A stretch of 64,000 nucleotides of DNA from a virus, in IMG/VR virus record IMGVR_UViG_3300009103_000003, positions 64,001-128,000 of that record; one strand, 5' to 3'. Shown here piece after piece: positions 6,181-25,163 of the stretch (its first letter is position 1; every line of letters starts with the position of its first letter). The position numbers and the translations under genes are program-made. Under the pieces are notes generated by a model. The model was not told where the DNA came from and did not search any database. It saw only the letters and a program-made list of their open reading frames with translations.

Positions 6181-6188
6181 CTTATACC
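6181..6188 (-). promoter_or_regulatory. Putative promoter element GGTATAAG
   Basis: About 60 nt upstream of the leftward operon. The same 8-mer occurs at 10289-10296 and 56446-56453. Confidence 0.5.
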
Positions 6189-9892: not shown

Positions 9893-10107
9893 CTTACACT
9901 TACCAATACGGCAGATCGCTCATCACATCGGTCGCACCGCCCCTTTTGGAAAAACGAGGAGGTACTATCGTTGTGCTTGAGGCATTTGGAGCATACCCAA
10001 AGATTTGCGTTCTCCCAATCAAGGAAGTAATTGCACGTGCCACAGTTCCGTGGTTCCCGGCAGAACCCTTGCTTGAGAAAGCATTTTATGGGTCGCTTGA
10101 TTTTCAC
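9889..10107 (-). CDS. Small Cys-rich putative Zn-binding protein (72 aa)
   Basis: CFLKQGFC, CGTC, CSKC, CDRC; GTG start 4 nt after the upstream small ORF. Confidence 0.6.
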   Translation of the reverse strand: MKIKRPIKCFLKQGFCREPRNCGTCNYFLDWENANLWVCSKCLKHNDSTSSFFQKGRCDRCDERSAVLVSVS

Positions 10108-10110
10108 AAG

Positions 10111-10248
10111 CTAATCTTTACTACCGGAAAGAGCATCCTCAACCGCGTTAGCGAAGTCCTCACAGGAACTGGCGCTACATGTAGTAATCGGCTCAGGAGA
10201 TTTAATAGAAGAACTATGGTTATACAACGGCTTCCAGAATTGGTTCAT
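10111..10248 (-). CDS. Small protein (45 aa, MNQFWKPLY...SGSKD); not in ORF track
   Basis: Strong SD AAAGGAG before the ATG, TAG at 10111-10113, GGTATAAG motif upstream. Confidence 0.6.
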   Translation of the reverse strand: MNQFWKPLYNHSSSIKSPEPITTCSASSCEDFANAVEDALSGSKD

Positions 10249-10288
10249 AATGAACTCCTTTTGTTATGGGGCCCTATTGCCCAATGTT

Positions 10289-10296
10289 CTTATACC
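10289..10296 (-). promoter_or_regulatory. Putative promoter element GGTATAAG
   Basis: About 40 nt upstream of the 45-aa ORF. Confidence 0.5.
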
Positions 10297-10329
10297 TAAC
10301 TAATACACCGTGTTAGCACGGAGGGACTA

Positions 10330-13300
10330 ATGTCGAATGTTTTAGATCCCCAGAGGGTGATGAAGACCCTCGAAGACGGGACGATAAACGAAATCAAAAA
10401 GTTTTTTCCTTTGGTTGGGAAGAAACATACGCTGATCGCCAAGGATGTCTATATTGGCGACCCAGTAGACATTGATGACGTTTCTAGTCAGAAAAAAGCA
10501 AGGCTTCGTGGGAGAACCTGGGCGCAGGGTGTCTTCGCAGACTTTAGTTTAGTCAACAACGAAACCGGCAAAGTAATTAGCACTGCTAATAAGCTAAAGG
10601 TTCTTAACCTACCAAAAATAACGCGAAGGTACAGCTACATTGTAGATGGTACCGAATACCAAGCAGACAACCAGTGGCGACTCAAGTCGGGCGTATATGC
10701 TCGTCGCAAAGCCAATGGCGATCTAGAATCCCAATTCAACCTAGCCCAAGGGCGCGGATTTAGACTAGGATTTGACCCCAAAAAGCGGCGATTCCTTATG
10801 TCCTACGGGACCTCCAACATCCAGCTTCTTCCGGTATTGCAAGCGCTCGGCGTCAAAGACGAAGACATACAAGCTGCCTGGGGTAACGAGCTATATACCG
10901 CTTCACTGGCCTCAAAAAAGCGGGGAGAGCTTGTGAAGCTTTCCAAGGCATTGGATAAGAAAGCTGGAGCAACGAACGACTCAGAGGCTGTGCCGGTAAT
11001 ACAAGCAGCCCTTAAAGAAACAAAACTTCTACCAGAAACAACTGCGATAACTCTCGGAGCCCCCCATACAACAGTTTCTGGTGATGCTCTGTTGGCGTCC
11101 TCCACAAAACTCCTAAACATAAACAAGGGAACCGAACAAGTCGATAACCGAGACGCGCTCCAGTTTAAGGAGCTTTGGGCCATTAACGACCATATCCCGG
11201 AACGAATCGAGAACTCAAAGCGTCGCATCACTTACAAGATGATGAACAATCTCGACCGTAAGGATAATGTGAGGGGGATTGTTACTGGGGACATTTTCAA
11301 TGTACCTATCAAGGCATTTTTTACCTCCACTTCCCTGTCCCAGCAGTCCTCCCAGGTTAACCCTGTAGATATGGTTGGGGGCTTCCTGAGAACCACAATT
11401 ATGGGGACCGGAGGCATTCAAAGCGACTCTGCTATCTCTGAGGAAGCTAAGCTGATTGATTCCAGCTTTCTCGGGTTTATTGATCCGGTGCACACCCCAG
11501 AAGGAAAGCGCTCCGGGATTAGTGGCCATCTTTCGCTAGGCGTACGTAAAAAGGGTACCGTCCCGCTTATCAAGGTATTCGACGTAAAGGCCGGTAAGTA
11601 CGCAGATAAATCACCATCAGAACTAACTTTGGGTAACGTAGCTTTCCCGGACCAATACGAGTTTACCAAAGGTAAATCTCCGAGGCCTATTGGGGACACC
11701 GCCACCGTTATCCCTTCCGGGGGAGGGGACCCGAGCAGGGTTGCATCATCTGACGTGGACTACATTCTTCAGTCTCCGAAACAGATGTTTTCCATCACAG
11801 CTAACCTTGTTCCCTTCCTCCCTTCGGATCAGGCAAACCGGGCAGGTATGGCAACCCGCCATATCGAACAGGCAATCTCCCTAACCAAAGCCGAAGAACC
11901 GCTGGTACAGGTTATCTCAGGCAACCCCAGTGAAAGATATGCTACCTGGGAAAAGATTGTGGGTGAGTTCTTCTCCCACCCCGCACCAGTAAGTGGTTTT
12001 GTTGACTCTGTCTCCAGTTCAAAGATTGTCGTAAAAAACAAGGACGGCAAGAAGCACGAAGTGCAGCTATATGACAACTTCCCGCTAAACGACAAGAAGG
12101 CGTATATTAGCAGTAATGCCTTAGTTAAGAAGGGGGACAAGGTATCTGAGGGGCAGATCATTGCGGACACGAACTTCACCAAGGGCGGAACGCTATCCCT
12201 AGGAACCAACCTGCTTATTGGCTATCTGCCTTACAAGGGGCTGGTTTTTGAGGACGGTATCGTCATCAGTGAGTCTGCGTCAAAAAAACTAACAAGCTCC
12301 CACTTACATAAAGAACGTTCATATGTAGATAAGAATATGGTGGTTGGGCTCAAGAAGTTTAGGGCTAATTACCCAGGCTCCATCTCCGAAGAAAACGCCA
12401 GCAAGCTTGACGCAGATGGGGTTATCAAAAAGGGGCAGACAGTTGACCCTGGGGACACCATCACCACGGTCCTTCAAAAAACAGAACCCTCAAAAGAACA
12501 GCTTCTTCTGAAGGGAATCCATAAGTCCCTTGTTAGGCCGTATAAAAACAAGTCCCTTGTTTGGGACAAACCTTACAGGGGCGAAGTCACCGACGTGGTT
12601 CGCAACGGGCGTGAGATTGTGGTCTATGTCAAGACCGAGGAGCCCGCAGACATTGGGGATAAGCTATCCGGAAGGCACGGCAATAAAGGGGTTATTACCG
12701 CAGTAATACCGGACGAAGAAATGCCGAAAGACTCGGAGGGTAACGCTCTACAGATAATCGTGAACCCGTCAGGGGTTCCGGGAAGAATCAATCCGGGGCA
12801 GGTCCTTGAGACTGCTTTGGGGAATGTTGCCCATAAAAACGGCGAGCCCTACGCAGTGGAGAACTTCCAATCAGATGACCGTAAGAAGGTTGTTCGCGTA
12901 AAGGCTCACACACGGACTATCCAAACAAAGTCTGGGCCTAAGACCGTAGAGGTTAAGGAACATGAACGAGAACTTGGTTACCGGGATGTTGTTGACGCTG
13001 CCCTAAAAAGCGCGAAGGTATCTGAGACAAGAGAATTGTTCGACCCACAGACAGGGAAAAGCCTCGGCTCCGTGCTCGTGGGACATCAGTATGTCCTCAA
13101 GCTAATGCACCAAGTAGACAAAAAGCTGAGTGCTCGTTCCCACGGATATGGGCATGATTACGACGCCAACCTAGTCCCAAAAAGCGGGGGGAAGTCTGGC
13201 GGTGCCCAAAGATTCGGTGAGCTTGGGCTCTACGCAATGTTGGCACACGGAGCCACGGCAAACATCCGAGACGCGTTAACATATAAAGGGGATAAGCAGC

Positions 13301-16300
13301 AGGACGAGGTTTGGACAGCAGTCCAGACTGGGGCTATTTTACCAACCCCTAAACCATCCTTTGCGTACGAAAAGTTTCTCGCCTACATGAATGCGTTAGG
13401 GCTAAATGTTGAAAAAGACGGCAATGGCCTAATCGTCTCACCACTTACAGACAAACAGATCAAGAGTATGTCTAACGGTGAAATAAAAGACGGAAGCCGA
13501 GTCATTCGTGGGAAGGACCTCAAGCCTGAGAAAGGTGGCCTATTTGATGAAACGATCACGGGCGGTCCCGGAGGCAAGAACTGGGCACATATCGCTCTCG
13601 CAGAGTCGCTCCCAAACCCTGTTTTCGAGAAAGGAATCCGCTCAGTTTTAGGGATAACCGGTAAAGAATATGATGCTGTAATAGCAGGTAAGTCCGGGTT
13701 CAATGCTGAGGGAGAGTTGGTGCCAGCCGGGGACGGCGTACTTACTGGGCCCGCTGCAATGGCCGCTCGACTAAAAAGTATCGACGTAGAGAGCGAACTA
13801 GCCTCAGCAAAAGAGGCGATAAAGACAGTCAGGCGAAATGACCTGGATAAGGTCAACAAGAAGATCAAGTATTGCCTGATGCTTCAAAAGAACAAAATCA
13901 GCCCACAAGAGGCATACGTTATTGATAACGTCCCGCTTCTTCCTCCGCTATTTCGACCCATCACAGCTATGGAGGGGGGAGACCTAAATATTGATGGTGT
14001 GAATATGCTCTATAGAGACATCGCACTGCTCAATAAGAAGCTGAAGGAGGCCCAAGGAGTCTTGCCAGAAGAAGCAATAATGAAACTTCGGGAAGATCTA
14101 TACTCCGCAACAGAAGCACTGATGGGCGTTCAGACCATGACTCAGGGAGGGCTGACGACAGACGGTCAACCCAGACCTCCTGGGATTCTGCATATCCTAG
14201 CTGGTAGATCCTCACCTAAGCAGAGCTACTTTCTACAAAGACTGGTAGACCGGAGACAAGACATAAGTATGCGTTCGGTCATTGTCCCTGACATGAACCT
14301 GCACTTAGATGAACTGGGTCTGCCTAGAAAAGGGGCGATGAAGATCTTCCGACCATTTGTGGTTCGGGAACTTGTTAAGATGGGGTACACACCCCTAAAA
14401 GCCAGGACTGAAGTAGAGAAGAACACAAGCCTAGCAAACAAGGCGCTGGACATTGCGGTTGAGAAGCGGCCCGTTATGTTCAAGCGAGATCCCGTTCTGC
14501 ACAAGTTTGGGATTATGGCGTTCAAGGCACGCCTTCATGACGAGTCAGCAATCCATATTCACCCACTTGTTGTTGGTGGGTTCAATGCTGATTTTGATGG
14601 AGACACGATGGCAGTGTTTGTCCCTGTATCGCAAGAAGCAGTGGATGAGTCATATAAGATGATGCCATCAAAGAACCTGTTTAACCCGGCTACCGGGCAC
14701 GTGATGTACCAACCAACTCTTGAGGGACAGTTGGGACTTTACCTCCTCTCTCGATGGGGGAAGAAGTCATCTAAGGCATTCAAGAACTCGAAAGAGGCCA
14801 TTGCTGACGCCAAAGAAGGAAACATCAGCATGACTGATGTCATCCAGGTAGGTGACATTAAAACAACTGCGGGAAGATTATTATTCAATAATATGCTCCC
14901 AAAGAAAGTCCAATCCGATAAATTCCTCACAGACCCGAAAGCTATCGTTGATAAGAAAACCCTTCAGGGGGTTCTTAGGGATGTGGCCACCAAAACCCCG
15001 CAAGAATTCGCGCAAACAGCGGATAGGGTCAAAGACCTTGGTTTTGGCCACGCATACAACATCGGGTTCTCGTTCGCTCTTTCAGACTTCGCACCTTTGC
15101 GGGACATTCGCGAAAAGCACATGACCCTCGCAAAAAAGAAAGAGGCGGTTATTCGAAAGCAGTTATCGATGAAGATGTTGTCCAAAGAAGCTGCCAACGA
15201 TAAAATTGTAAAACTATATGAATCCGCAGATTCGGCCATGACCGCTGATGCTACTGCTTTACTAGATAAGGGCGGGAACAAGCTTAAGCTTATGGAGGCT
15301 GCGGGGGTTAAGCCCTCATGGTCACAGCTTAAACAAATGATCATGGCACCGATGCTAGTTGAAAACGCGCAGGGAAGGGTCATACCTGTTCCCGTGACTA
15401 GCTCCTATTCAGAGGGGCTGAAGTCCTCGGACTACTGGGTAACTACATCGGGCGCTCGTGCGGGCCTTATCAAAAAGGTCCAGTCCGTTCAGAAGCCTGG
15501 GGCGCTTAATAAGCAGATCGCTAATACAACAATATCATACGTAATAAACAATGATGACTGTGGGACTGGGAAGGGGATATCCTTACCGGTATTTGATTCA
15601 GATTTAGTTGACCGGTTTACCGCGAAATCGATTTCAACCGCAGGATTGAAGGTATCTTCCGGGACTCTTATCACCCCTAATCTTCTCTCTAAAATGAAGG
15701 CGTCCAAGGTGGACAGGGTGGTTGTCAGGTCCCCTCTTAAGTGTGAGCAGTCCAAGGGGCTGTGTTCCAAGTGTTACGGTATTACCGATAATGGGGCTCC
15801 CATAGCTAAGGGAACCAATATCGGATTAATTGCCGGGACGTCAATTGGTGAACGTGGGACACAACTTTCTATGAAGGCTTTCCATACTGGCGGTGTAGCT
15901 GGGGGAGGAAGCTCGGTTGTTGGTGGTATTGACCGGGTCTCACAATTGCTGAAGATGCCTGCACTATTGGCTGGCTCTGCGACACTGTCTCCGGTTTCTG
16001 GAGAGGTGACCTCCGTAACAAAGAGTGAGATTGGTGGCCACGATGTGGTTATCGGCAACCAAGAGGCGTACATCCCCGGCAATCTATCGGTTTCCGTAAA
16101 GAAGGGCGAGAAGGTACGCAGAGGTCAACAAATTTCTAGTGGGGTCATTAACCCGCACGATCTTCTTGAGAAGACAAACATTGAGACAGTTCAGCGGTAT
16201 CTTGCGGATGAGATTCACAAGGTCTACGCGAAAGAGGGCATCAAGAAGAGAAACGTTGAGGTGGTAACAAAGGCTTTAACGAATCTGGGCAGGGTAATGG

Positions 16301-16605
16301 ACCCCGGCGACTCCTCTAAGTTTATTCGGGGTGACTACATTTCGCTTTCTCATGCAAGCGCTGTGAACAAAACTTTGAAAAACCCCATAAAAACATTACC
16401 TGTACTGCGTGGTGTAGAGACCCTGCCGCTAGATCAGACCACAGACTGGTTGGCGAGACTACAATACAGAAAACTAAAAGAGACGTTTATTAGGGCCGCA
16501 AATGAGGGGTGGGAGAGTGATATTCACGGCCTCCACCCAGCGCCTGGACTAGCCTATTCTGCTGAGTTTGGTAGGAAGGGTAAAACTACAGGGGGGCCCT
16601 ACTAA
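10330..16605 (+). CDS. rpoBC: Single-chain fused beta-beta' (double-psi barrel) DNA-directed RNA polymerase
   Basis: Beta motifs HTPEGKRSG, PFLPSDQANRA, GLVFEDGIVISES, GDKLSGRHGNKG, GGAQRFGE. Beta' motifs KPEKGGLF, PLLPPLFRP, FNADFDGD, bridge helix SGARAGL, trigger loop GERGTQLSMKAFHTGG. Confidence 0.97.
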   Translation: MSNVLDPQRVMKTLEDGTINEIKKFFPLVGKKHTLIAKDVYIGDPVDIDDVSSQKKARLRGRTWAQGVFADFSLVNNETGKVISTANKLKVLNLPKITRRYSYIVDGTEYQADNQWRLKSGVYARRKANGDLESQFNLAQGRGFRLGFDPKKRRFLMSYGTSNIQLLPVLQALGVKDEDIQAAWGNELYTASLASKKRGELVKLSKALDKKAGATNDSEAVPVIQAALKETKLLPETTAITLGAPHTTVSGDALLASSTKLLNINKGTEQVDNRDALQFKELWAINDHIPERIENSKRRITYKMMNNLDRKDNVRGIVTGDIFNVPIKAFFTSTSLSQQSSQVNPVDMVGGFLRTTIMGTGGIQSDSAISEEAKLIDSSFLGFIDPVHTPEGKRSGISGHLSLGVRKKGTVPLIKVFDVKAGKYADKSPSELTLGNVAFPDQYEFTKGKSPRPIGDTATVIPSGGGDPSRVASSDVDYILQSPKQMFSITANLVPFLPSDQANRAGMATRHIEQAISLTKAEEPLVQVISGNPSERYATWEKIVGEFFSHPAPVSGFVDSVSSSKIVVKNKDGKKHEVQLYDNFPLNDKKAYISSNALVKKGDKVSEGQIIADTNFTKGGTLSLGTNLLIGYLPYKGLVFEDGIVISESASKKLTSSHLHKERSYVDKNMVVGLKKFRANYPGSISEENASKLDADGVIKKGQTVDPGDTITTVLQKTEPSKEQLLLKGIHKSLVRPYKNKSLVWDKPYRGEVTDVVRNGREIVVYVKTEEPADIGDKLSGRHGNKGVITAVIPDEEMPKDSEGNALQIIVNPSGVPGRINPGQVLETALGNVAHKNGEPYAVENFQSDDRKKVVRVKAHTRTIQTKSGPKTVEVKEHERELGYRDVVDAALKSAKVSETRELFDPQTGKSLGSVLVGHQYVLKLMHQVDKKLSARSHGYGHDYDANLVPKSGGKSGGAQRFGELGLYAMLAHGATANIRDALTYKGDKQQDEVWTAVQTGAILPTPKPSFAYEKFLAYMNALGLNVEKDGNGLIVSPLTDKQIKSMSNGEIKDGSRVIRGKDLKPEKGGLFDETITGGPGGKNWAHIALAESLPNPVFEKGIRSVLGITGKEYDAVIAGKSGFNAEGELVPAGDGVLTGPAAMAARLKSIDVESELASAKEAIKTVRRNDLDKVNKKIKYCLMLQKNKISPQEAYVIDNVPLLPPLFRPITAMEGGDLNIDGVNMLYRDIALLNKKLKEAQGVLPEEAIMKLREDLYSATEALMGVQTMTQGGLTTDGQPRPPGILHILAGRSSPKQSYFLQRLVDRRQDISMRSVIVPDMNLHLDELGLPRKGAMKIFRPFVVRELVKMGYTPLKARTEVEKNTSLANKALDIAVEKRPVMFKRDPVLHKFGIMAFKARLHDESAIHIHPLVVGGFNADFDGDTMAVFVPVSQEAVDESYKMMPSKNLFNPATGHVMYQPTLEGQLGLYLLSRWGKKSSKAFKNSKEAIADAKEGNISMTDVIQVGDIKTTAGRLLFNNMLPKKVQSDKFLTDPKAIVDKKTLQGVLRDVATKTPQEFAQTADRVKDLGFGHAYNIGFSFALSDFAPLRDIREKHMTLAKKKEAVIRKQLSMKMLSKEAANDKIVKLYESADSAMTADATALLDKGGNKLKLMEAAGVKPSWSQLKQMIMAPMLVENAQGRVIPVPVTSSYSEGLKSSDYWVTTSGARAGLIKKVQSVQKPGALNKQIANTTISYVINNDDCGTGKGISLPVFDSDLVDRFTAKSISTAGLKVSSGTLITPNLLSKMKASKVDRVVVRSPLKCEQSKGLCSKCYGITDNGAPIAKGTNIGLIAGTSIGERGTQLSMKAFHTGGVAGGGSSVVGGIDRVSQLLKMPALLAGSATLSPVSGEVTSVTKSEIGGHDVVIGNQEAYIPGNLSVSVKKGEKVRRGQQISSGVINPHDLLEKTNIETVQRYLADEIHKVYAKEGIKKRNVEVVTKALTNLGRVMDPGDSSKFIRGDYISLSHASAVNKTLKNPIKTLPVLRGVETLPLDQTTDWLARLQYRKLKETFIRAANEGWESDIHGLHPAPGLAYSAEFGRKGKTTGGPY

Positions 16606-23393: not shown

Positions 23394-25163
23394 ATGAGTC
23401 TGGGCGATTACTTAACCAAATCTGCGGAAGAAGCTCCCCCCAAGCATGGGACAGGGATTCCTTCGCTCAAAGAATGGTTCAAGCCCTACGATCATCAAGC
23501 AAGCGCAATTGACCGCCTGTTCGCTAACAAAGGGAAGATGATTCTCGCCCATGAGATGGGTACCGGTAAAACCGTTACCAGTATCTATGGGTTTGAGAAA
23601 ATGAAGCATGAAGGTAAGGCGAAAAAAGCTCTTGTCATTGTGCCTTCCGGTCTTCGAGACAACTTCGCCAAAAACGGTATTGAGAAGTTCACCAATAGTA
23701 CTTGGCAGGCGATTGGTTCTTCCTCTGAGAAGTCTAAGAAGGCTGGGTATATCAGGCCTGGGGAAGAGTCCGACAAAGATTACACAGTAATAAGCTATGC
23801 GATGTTTCGGCGTGATCCAATTGGGTACATGAAGCGAACAGGCGCAGATACGATTATCGCGGACGAGTTCCACAAGACTAGGAATGAACGGGCTAGCACA
23901 TACCAAGCCCTGGCCTCTGCTCGTGTGTTGGCTACAAACTTCATGGGGCTGACCGCCTCGATGATTAATAATAATCCTTCGGAGTTGGCGACCCTGCTTA
24001 CCTTATCGGAGGGGAGGCGGGACCTAACACCAAGGCAATTTAAGCGCCGATATACCCAAACGATTGGATTCACCAAAGGATTTAATGACGGTCGTAAAAA
24101 GATCGTTGGGATGAAAAATGTTGATGAGCTACGGGAGCGGACAGGGACAAAAGTAGACTACGTCGAAACCAAGGACTTGAAAGGCAAGACGATGCCTAAA
24201 AAAGATATTGAGACAGTCCCTGTCCCAATGTCTAAGGAACAGTATCGACTGTATCAACTGTCACTAAACAAGCTCGGCCCAGTTAAGAAGTATATAACCA
24301 AGAAAGACCCAAACATCACTGTGCGAGAAGCCAAGATGATTTTTGGGCAGATTTCACAAGCCCGACAAGTCGCTAACTCTCTCCAAACTGGGCGAAGTGA
24401 TGTGACCCTTGCCGAGTCATCCAGAAGAACTCCGAAGGTGAACAGGCTCCTAAACGACACAGAAAAACACTTGGCAGATAAGTCAGACAACAAGGTTGTT
24501 TTATATTCGAACCTTGTTCGTGGTGGGGTGGATGTTCTATCTGCCGGGTTAAAAGAACGAGGAATCCCCCACTCTGTATTCGTTGGTAAAGGCACAGAGG
24601 TGGGTGGTAATAAGGTTACAGCCGTCTCCAGACAGGCTGGAGTTCAGGAGTATAAGGCCGGGAAAAAGCGGGTAATCGTCATCAGTGGTGCTGGGGCTGA
24701 GGGGCTCGATCTTAAGAACTCAACGGCATTTTTCTCTTTAGATGGGCACTTCAATCCACAACGCGTTTTACAAGCAGAGGGTAGGGCTAGAAGACTTGGT
24801 GGGCAAAAACATCGCGCATTAGAGGACCGCATTGTGAATGTAAGGCGCTACCAGAGTGTCGCGCCAGACAGTGCAAAGCCTGGGTTTATTGGTCGAGTGT
24901 TTGGGAAGACCACCCCAAGAACAACAGATCAATGGATGGATAGCGTTGCTAGCCGGAAGTACCAGCAGCAAGAGCAATTCTATAAAGCCTATAAGCAGAA
25001 AAAGCATCTGTATAAATACACAGACCAAAGCGGGAAAACTAGATATGTCTACGCCAAAAAAACCAAACAAAAATCCCCTGGACTCTTTTCTCGGATCTTC
25101 TCTAGAAAGCGAACTCCTGAAGCTAGCCCAATCCAAGCCCCCAAACCTACGACTGTCGGATAG
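23394..25163 (+). CDS. SNF2-family helicase/ATPase
   Basis: LAHEMGTGKT, IIADEFHK, GLTASMINNNPSEL, GAEGLDL, FNPQRVLQAEGRARRLG; N-terminal LTKSA. Confidence 0.92.
   Translation: MSLGDYLTKSAEEAPPKHGTGIPSLKEWFKPYDHQASAIDRLFANKGKMILAHEMGTGKTVTSIYGFEKMKHEGKAKKALVIVPSGLRDNFAKNGIEKFTNSTWQAIGSSSEKSKKAGYIRPGEESDKDYTVISYAMFRRDPIGYMKRTGADTIIADEFHKTRNERASTYQALASARVLATNFMGLTASMINNNPSELATLLTLSEGRRDLTPRQFKRRYTQTIGFTKGFNDGRKKIVGMKNVDELRERTGTKVDYVETKDLKGKTMPKKDIETVPVPMSKEQYRLYQLSLNKLGPVKKYITKKDPNITVREAKMIFGQISQARQVANSLQTGRSDVTLAESSRRTPKVNRLLNDTEKHLADKSDNKVVLYSNLVRGGVDVLSAGLKERGIPHSVFVGKGTEVGGNKVTAVSRQAGVQEYKAGKKRVIVISGAGAEGLDLKNSTAFFSLDGHFNPQRVLQAEGRARRLGGQKHRALEDRIVNVRRYQSVAPDSAKPGFIGRVFGKTTPRTTDQWMDSVASRKYQQQEQFYKAYKQKKHLYKYTDQSGKTRYVYAKKTKQKSPGLFSRIFSRKRTPEASPIQAPKPTTVG

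Follow-up and report, generated by a model that had tools for sequence, protein, structure and literature searches.

A single-chain bacterial-type RNA polymerase without the β′ zinc-binding domain, encoded among the virion genes of a metagenomic phage

The stretch of DNA considered here, referred to as the window, comprises 64,000 nucleotides (nt) at positions 64001–128000 of the IMG/VR virus record IMGVR_UViG_3300009103_000003; a window coordinate is the genome coordinate minus 64000. The record, from an uncultured marine phage, is 181,199 bp long, has direct terminal repeats and is rated 100% complete. Within a block of 38 plus-strand genes, it carries a gene for an RNA polymerase (RNAP) in which the β and β′ subunits form one chain (Table 1). 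The gene is a single ATG-to-stop open reading frame (ORF) whose translation gives 2,091 amino acids (aa) and about 228 kDa, with a GGAGGG ribosome-binding site 6 nt 5′ of the ATG, and one polymerase gene copy was found in the complete 181-kb genome. Pfam searches recovered Rpb2 domains 2, 3, 6 and 7 (residues 140–997) followed by Rpb1 domains 1, 2, 3 and 5 (residues 1152–1874), with scores over the curated cut-offs (Rpb2_6, 192 bits; Rpb1_2, 96; Rpb1_5, 82; Rpb1_1, 43; Rpb2_3, 30; Rpb1_3, 30). A sequence search of the PDB gave bacterial β′ chains as its only top matches, the best with E 1e-116. By these sequence criteria, the gene is the complete catalytic core of a bacterial-type RNAP in one polypeptide. 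A Peptidase_M23 match at residues 1882–1936, directly after the trigger loop, scored 27 bits, under the cut-off, and was rejected; this segment is read as the sandwich-barrel “jaw” of β′ rather than as a peptidase.

The protein was aligned with MAFFT to the rpoB and rpoC products of E. coli K-12 and B. subtilis, taken from annotated records. The β module is 27.5% identical to E. coli β and 26.3% identical to B. subtilis β, and deletions at E. coli positions 229–345 and 938–1049 correspond to the absence of SI1 and SI2. The C-terminus of β meets the equivalent of approximately residue 18 of E. coli β′ with essentially zero linker, and roughly the first 17 positions of E. coli β′ are without an equivalent in the window protein. 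As aligned, the chain is about 300 aa shorter than B. subtilis β and β′ together and lacks SI1, SI2, SI3 and the zinc-binding domain (ZBD) of β′. An original prediction, made from the sequence of the window, had described a single-chain β-β′ enzyme in which the end of β runs directly into β′, and both points are borne out by the uninterrupted frame and the order of its domains.

The ZBD is removed by a clean deletion of 32 residues, equivalent to E. coli β′ residues 68–99 (B. subtilis 58–89). The deleted segment holds the E. coli cysteines C70, C72, C85 and C88, and GGPGGKN stands in its place, within the segment GLFDETITGGPGGKNWAHIAL that the original prediction had quoted as the replacement and that was confirmed at residues 1070–1090. 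The whole polymerase contains only five cysteines, none of which falls in the ZBD region, and four of which (Cys1744, 1805, 1812 and 1815) make up the second zinc site, which is kept. The β′ ZBD has been described as common to all multisubunit RNAPs; it is retained in the non-virion RNAP (nvRNAP) of phage phiKZ and absent from the nvRNAP of phage AR9 (PMC7618050).

The predicted retention of the NADFDGD motif, the bridge helix, the trigger-loop histidine and the second zinc site was likewise confirmed. The trigger loop IGERGTQLSMKAFHTGG occupies residues 1839–1855 and carries His1852, and the active-site (lysine) loop of β, GDKLSGRHGNKGV, is kept at residues 776–788. In bacterial holoenzymes, region 2 of the sigma factor usually docks on the β′ clamp coiled-coil. 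This element is present in the window core, as is a flap-tip-like helix in the β module (residues 719–734), so that both of the classic sigma docking sites can be recognized. Three residues of the rifampicin pocket differ from E. coli at D516, H526 and S531, which are main rifampicin contacts and known positions of resistance, and from these substitutions the enzyme is predicted to be insensitive to the drug.

The single-chain form is not peculiar to one contig. Eighteen related IMG/VR loci carry the same gene at 65–85% identity; it is full-length in 16 of them and cut by the contig end in the other two, and the six that were translated are without stops. When the β′ half was used as query in an exhaustive HMMER search, 150 cluster representatives were recovered (all E <1e-183, 35–61% identity, most of 2,000–3,700 aa), and a second search added at least 120 further members at 43–85% identity, from contigs as long as about 200 kb. 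A survey set of 231 proteins of at least 1,900 aa was assembled, which puts the family at no fewer than 231 members. The junction was found in all 231; in the 226 where it is collinear, it spans 130–146 aa, which is too short for a zinc finger. The motif C.C...C..C after GLF occurs in none of the 231 proteins, and all 18 IMG/VR relatives have the same junction and lack this motif after GLF.

In principle, a fused frame could be an artefact of assembly or sequencing, or a pseudogene. No point in favor of this explanation was found. The same junction runs without interruption through the 18 IMG/VR loci as well as through 231 independent proteins of several metagenomic sources, and every catalytic motif of the window enzyme is intact. 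Since both the fusion and the loss of the ZBD are common to at least 231 proteins, they are not errors, and the artefact explanation is regarded as extremely improbable.

Variation within the family is concentrated in insertions. NADFDGD is intact in 160 of the 231 proteins, and most of the remaining cases are taken to reflect an insertion mapped at that site, which was not checked protein by protein. Many members (including P0007, P0009, P0035 and P0059) carry insertions of 330–500 aa at the equivalents of window residues ~390, ~780, 1425–1430 (within NADFDGD) and ~1850 (at the trigger loop), and LAGLIDADG, intein-splicing and Hom_end Pfam domains are precomputed for family members. These insertions appear to be inteins, in which the family appears to be unusually rich. 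The window copy contains no such insertion.

In public records, the family proteins bear automatic names only, and literature searches found no description of a fused phage β-β′ family, which is not proof that none exists. Copies of the polymerase, the adjacent spike protein and the sigma factor described below are also present, at 68–80% identity and as hypothetical proteins (P0156, P0157, P0268, P0269 and P0324), in an NCBI metagenome-assembled genome (MAG) labelled “Alteromonadaceae bacterium”. These are probably phage contigs binned with the bacterium, and they offer a weak lead to a host.

In a set of 50,697 deposited phage genomes, matches that cover most of the polymerase were limited to Vibrio phages D69, D148 and D181 and Salmonella phage Arash, at ~30% identity. 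A scan of bacteria (one genome per species) gave 597 confirmed β′ matches, the best 80 of which are all 29–34% identical to the window protein and span Chloroflexota, Actinomycetota, Bacteroidota, Bacillota, phyla of the candidate phyla radiation (CPR), Pseudomonadota and others. A maximum-likelihood tree of β′ was built from 47 rows (thinned from 66) and 1,017 columns under LG+G4 with a quick search, and has long branches. On this tree, all 29 bacteria, from 10 named phyla, lie on one side of a branch with a Shimodaira–Hasegawa-like approximate likelihood ratio test (SH-aLRT) support of 100. The single-chain family and Arash/D69 form one group (SH-aLRT 99). The β′ sequences of Rhizobium phage TM21B and Cobetia phage Carin-5 have long branches and belong neither to this group nor to the bacteria.

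This placement bears on whether the phage might have acquired a bacterial rpoB-rpoC operon recently, or the contig be contaminated with bacterial DNA. The Pfam and PDB matches are indeed to bacterial β and β′, and the NCBI copies at up to 80% identity are labelled as an Alteromonadaceae MAG. However, the 181-kb virus record is complete and has terminal repeats, the polymerase is flanked by phage morphogenesis genes, and the best 80 bacterial matches are flat at 29–34% and scattered across many phyla. No bacterium exceeds 34% identity, and the gene is therefore not a recent capture. In the phylogenetic check that had been proposed with the original prediction, nesting inside a bacterial rpoBC clade was not seen, the family falling outside the 29 sampled bacteria on the fully supported branch. 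Capture or contamination is thus given almost no weight. The absence of a mixture model and of an archaeal outgroup from the tree counts against reading the deep placement too firmly.

In a Candidatus Paceibacterota MAG (DATJQA010000074.1, locus L057), the open frame over rpoC is 2,284 aa long, and this CPR bacterium may thus have a natural rpoB-rpoC fusion of cellular origin.

The polymerase gene lies among genes for virion proteins. Immediately upstream is a homologue of a portal protein, and its assignment runs through Arash gp204, which together with its D69 homologue matches phrog_16240 “portal protein” (E 4e-7 and 9e-8); the window protein itself gave no direct Pfam, PHROG or PDB-sequence match. 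It has four invariant cysteines (C129, C132, C154 and C157) in a zinc-ribbon-like insert, and a low-complexity stretch rich in Gln, Pro and Gly (about residues 520–600) followed by a conserved C-terminal tail. Immediately downstream is a central baseplate spike or hub protein, for which the Atlas lead was Phage_base_V. Its AlphaFold2 (AF2) model matched, as best Foldseek hits in the PDB, the R2 pyocin spike, phi92 gp138, P2 gpV, VgrG, spikes of extracellular contractile injection systems, and the phi812 and Mu baseplates (probability 1.0, E 2e-5 to 1e-3). Pfam and PHROG searches on nine neighboring ORFs at first gave no match, and family profiles of the spike and portal against PDB sequences gave nothing meaningful; the spike was thus identified by fold search, and the portal by way of gp204 and phrog_16240. 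The stop codon of the polymerase and the start codon of the spike overlap by one base (TAATG), an arrangement that recurs in relatives.

Further downstream of the spike are an SNF2-family helicase, a large terminase, a head-maturation protease, a capsid-like protein and a tail sheath. This order of genes, from portal through polymerase and spike to tail sheath, is kept in 12–20 related loci; a small variable ORF stands between portal and polymerase. The original prediction had placed the gene among virion genes, between portal and baseplate spike and coupled to the latter, and this description holds. The helicase is possibly a polymerase-associated factor. A guess from position that the spike ORF is the homologue of Arash gp217 was rejected, as the gp217 homologue proved to be the helicase. 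The 437-nt gap between portal and polymerase (9893–10329) holds an ORF at 9946–10299 with a TTG start that is conserved in one relative only, and it is doubtful that this ORF is protein-coding.

Table 1. Features of the polymerase locus and related elements of the phage genome (window coordinates unless marked as genome).
Feature	Position	Strand	Basis
Single-chain β-β′ RNA polymerase gene	10330..16605	+	One ORF; Pfam Rpb2 and Rpb1 domains in order; PDB β′ matches
β module, residues 1 to about 1032	10330..13425	+	Alignment with E. coli and B. subtilis β
Rifampicin-pocket region	11317..11415	+	E. coli D516→S, H526→G, S531→T (alignment)
β-to-β′ junction, residues 1019–1052	13384..13485	+	Alignment
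GGPGGKN loop at ZBD position, residues 1078–1084	13561..13581	+	32-residue alignment gap
β′ clamp coiled-coil, residues 1224–1266	13999..14127	+	Aligned to E. coli β′ about 265–310
Catalytic NADFDGD, residues 1419–1425	14584..14604	+	Alignment
Bridge helix (residues 1699–1733), second Zn site and trigger loop with His1852, no SI3	15424..15894	+	Alignment
Portal-protein homologue, 670 aa	7880..9892	+	32% identity, E 2e-98 to Arash gp204
Central baseplate spike/hub protein, 452 aa	16605..17963	+	AF2 model (pLDDT 68), Foldseek PDB
SNF2-family helicase	23394..25163	+	Pfam SNF2-rel_dom E 4e-20; Arash gp217 homologue (26% identity, E 4e-36)
Sigma-70-family factor	genome 11304-12275 (outside window; locus L024:1057-2028)		phrog_351, Arash gp10, AF2 fold
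GGTATAAG, candidate promoter core	genome 70181, 120446, 134775, 137532/137570, 159859, 172052, 173765		

The Arash and D69-type phages are sister to the window family on the β′ tree and share much of its organization. In Arash (gp206 and gp216, sigma factor gp10; OQ632216; PMC10585845) and in Vibrio phages D69, D148 and D181, β is likewise fused to the N-terminus of β′, with the same ZBD deletion. Arash and D69 also have the order of portal, small ORF and polymerase, homologues of the sigma factor and of the SNF2 helicase, and genomes of about 180–187 kb. They differ in being only 29–33% identical to the window polymerase, in having the active site AADYDGD instead of NADFDGD, and in having a far more diverged trigger loop. 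Moreover, their β′ is cut again near window residue 1516, so that its C-terminal part is a separate gene of 606–609 aa, whereas the window gene and all of its close relatives are continuous through this residue. In Arash, nine opposite-strand genes lie between the polymerase pieces, and gp217 directly follows the gene that encodes the β′ C-terminal portion. The corresponding gap holds small ORFs in D69 and an annotated homing endonuclease in D148 and D181, and because of this endonuclease, the secondary split in the Vibrio phage lineage may have been caused by mobile DNA. The portion of the Arash paper considered here annotates “beta” and “beta′” and describes neither the fusion nor the missing zinc finger (PMC10585845).

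The original prediction stated that no α, ω or sigma gene is in the window. For α (PF01000) and ω (PF01192), this extends to the whole 181-kb genome, in which neither was matched, and the positive controls succeeded in 14 of 14 genomes. A search for a T7-type RNAP (PF00940) also gave no match, but with an uninformative control. For sigma, the statement is literally correct for the window and does not hold for the phage, which encodes a sigma-70-family factor elsewhere in its genome (Table 1). This gene has a weak Pfam signal for regions 2/3, matches phrog_351 “sigma factor” (E 5e-12), is 30% identical to Arash gp10 (E 4e-29) and has at least 188 homologues. The PDB matches listed for its AF2 model (pLDDT 82), 50 in number with E from 7e-8 to 2e-5, are all sigma factors. 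The gene is single-copy in the genome and occurs together with the polymerase in five of five related records. The protein has an extra N-terminal part, in which residues 27–59 are modelled as a single helix plus a small sheet of four strands, with conserved basic residues; an unstructured acidic stretch separates them from region 2. Since the phage encodes its own sigma factor, the enzyme is not factor-free, and the predicted “minimal enzyme” is an apt description of the compact core and not of the whole machine.

The absence of an α gene from the genome suggests that the polymerase may work independently of α, and on the sequence evidence the balance tips slightly toward this view. Bacterial RNAP is normally assembled on an α dimer, and α remains in use in natural rpoBC fusions, for example in Helicobacter. 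The missing homologue is also compatible with the use of host α or of an unrelated phage subunit, which weighs against independence. The single chain might still require the host α dimer, and perhaps ω, to give a hybrid enzyme that may or may not be packaged; in support of this, a bacterial β/β′ pair is inactive without the α dimer (cited in PMC7618050). Such a hybrid is possible, if on the unlikely side. The identity to any bacterial β or β′ is only 27–34%, and the surfaces that contact α are therefore unlikely to fit those of a given host; in addition, an enzyme delivered by the particle would need to find free host α. No α subunit is known from the cryo-electron microscopy models of the phiKZ and AR9 nvRNAPs. 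phiKZ itself encodes no α or ω homologue (PMC7618050).

A candidate for the promoter read by such an enzyme is the motif GGTATAAG, which was derived by listing intergenic ATAAG sites; plain k-mer enrichment upstream of genes had given only a weak GTATAAG signal. There are 15 copies in the genome compared to 4.9 +/- 2.3 in random sequence, a threefold excess, and 9 of the 15 are intergenic, although intergenic DNA makes up 5.5% of the genome. They lie mostly in small-gene regions and point at the downstream genes. Three complete relatives contain 15, 13 and 12 copies compared to 1, 5 and 4 for the reversed control. Two divergent copies 38 nt apart (the pair in Table 1) recur in relatives G001 and G004. 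One listed copy falls at window position 6181 on the minus strand, and another minus-strand copy, at window 10289–10296 in the gap between portal and polymerase, points away from the polymerase. From its sequence distribution, GGTATAAG is a candidate promoter core of the phage. That the phage holoenzyme reads it is a conjecture, and several observations count against it: no direct link joins the two, GGTATAAG has no clear -35-like partner, and no copy stands ahead of the structural block. A scan for the sigma-70 consensus around the polymerase gene gave 16 sites compared to 19.2 in shuffled sequences, which is not above expectation.

Because of the position of the gene and the particle proteomics of Arash, the polymerase is probably packaged in the particles of this phage. 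In sucrose-gradient-purified Arash particles, the polymerase gp206 is represented by 128 unique peptides and 3516 spectra, the highest values in the table, followed here by gp216 (40/1210), the helicase gp217 (38/1148), the portal (32/877) and the sigma factor gp10 (24/467) (PMC10585845). An RNAP produced at the same time as portal and spike could do little in the ongoing infection, whereas loading into the particle would make it available in the following cycle.

The explanation preferred on balance is that the core and the phage sigma factor form an all-phage holoenzyme that is packaged and injected with the DNA. In this scheme, the core would pair with sigma through the β′ clamp coiled-coil and the β flap tip, and the resulting holoenzyme would read phage-specific promoters. 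The polymerase would be produced along with head and tail proteins, loaded with sigma and perhaps with the SNF2 helicase, and delivered with the DNA, and phage transcription would then begin without the host RNAP. With β and β′ in a single polypeptide, the α dimer is plausibly no longer required as an assembly platform. The β′ zinc finger lines the RNA-exit channel, and its loss plausibly alters termination and the handling of host factors, and the substitutions in the rifampicin pocket would leave the enzyme unaffected by that drug.

Several points speak against packaging. The Arash particle list comprises 116 proteins, including ribonucleotide reductases and ligases, and its authors allow for carry-over of proteins abundant during infection (PMC10585845, as excerpted). 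The Arash polymerase is only ~30% identical to that of the window and is split in two. The polymerase might instead act within the infected cell as an unpackaged, non-virion enzyme, with host RNAP reading the early genes and the phage enzyme and its sigma factor reading middle and late genes. The breadth of the Arash “structural proteome” and the acknowledged carry-over would suit this arrangement, as would the presence of a single polymerase gene here compared to two sets in phiKZ-type phages, and the fact that sigma-70-like sites around the gene are not depleted. It is nevertheless considered unlikely: the gene lies within the portal-to-sheath block and is translationally coupled to the spike in all relatives examined, synthesis confined to the time of the late proteins would not supply the enzyme early enough for the same cycle, and the spectral count of the Arash polymerase exceeds those of the portal and capsid proteins (PMC10585845, in part).

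Extended to its lineage, the packaged-holoenzyme explanation becomes more tentative. It is conceivable, at somewhat less than even confidence, that a very large, uncultured and mostly marine lineage of phages carries in its particles a self-sufficient holoenzyme, made up of the one-chain core lacking α, ω and the β′ zinc finger, of sigma and perhaps of the SNF2 helicase, which is injected to read private GGTATAAG-type promoters.

Other phage RNAPs resemble the window enzyme in single features. The mReC polymerases also come from uncultured tailed phages, have alignable β and β′ and branch outside the cellular lineages (Weinheimer & Aylward 2020, PMC7481178). They differ in that β (about 1000–1400 aa) and β′ (900–1300 aa) are always separate genes in the text available from that study, and some genomes have two sets. 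The mReC contigs derive mainly from sediments, digesters and human samples; in the same text, none of 12 metagenome identifiers searched, of the 16 that hold relatives of the window phage, was found, and the word “fused” is used for crAssphage only (PMC7481178). The T4-type capsid marker of those mReC phages in which a capsid gene was detected, PF07068, had no match in the genome of the window phage.

The phiKZ and AR9 enzymes are also of β/β′ type without α or ω homologues, and the AR9 nvRNAP also lacks the β′ ZBD (PMC7618050); together, these provide a precedent for the present reading. One of their sets is packaged in the particle, and phiKZ-type RNAPs have been linked to a superfamily 2 helicase, a parallel to the SNF2 helicase near the window polymerase (PMC7824862, in part). 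However, they consist of four or five polypeptides in two paralogous sets and use no sigma-family factor (PMC7824862), in contrast to the one chain, one copy and sigma factor found here. They are also far more diverged, the window polymerase matching their PHROGs with E 1e-28 or weaker compared to 1e-127 for bacterial-like models. The single-chain family is not mentioned in the portion of this jumbo-phage overview at hand (PMC7824862).

The crAss-like gp66 and YonO enzymes combine both catalytic barrels in one polypeptide, and the crAss enzyme is virion-borne. P23-45 gp96 is another single-chain, two-barrel phage RNAP that is carried in the virion. The crAssphage enzyme, however, has no recognizable homology to the COG0085/COG0086 models, and YonO is highly divergent (PMC7481178, as excerpted). 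In contrast, the window polymerase matches nine Pfam β and β′ domains, and its bridge helix, trigger loop, clamp helices and flap are retained. Among cellular enzymes, Helicobacter and Wolbachia have natural rpoB-rpoC fusions, which retain the ZBD and work with α, ω and host sigma factors. These fusions and the Paceibacterota frame have the same subunit order and the same ends joined as the window polymerase, but they are cellular enzymes, and the Paceibacterota sequence sits among the bacteria on the tree, apart from the phage family. Among phage RNAPs of the cellular type, the window enzyme is distinguished by its single chain, its missing ZBD, its lack of α and ω homologues, its sigma factor and its position among head-tail genes.

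A bacterial-type RNAP without the zinc finger and without an α or ω homologue is a natural experiment on what the transcription core requires, and its one-gene form should ease expression for structural work and in vitro transcription. In addition, because the family is deep-branching and easy to align, it is a possible phylogenetic marker for these phages. If the proposed scheme is true, the enzyme would be a further type of virion transcription machine beside those of N4, phiKZ and crAss/P23-45, and a natural minimal sigma-dependent RNAP. If packaged, it would be the first injected polymerase to use a sigma factor, and would explain how abundant marine phages of 170–200 kb could start infection independently of the host enzyme.

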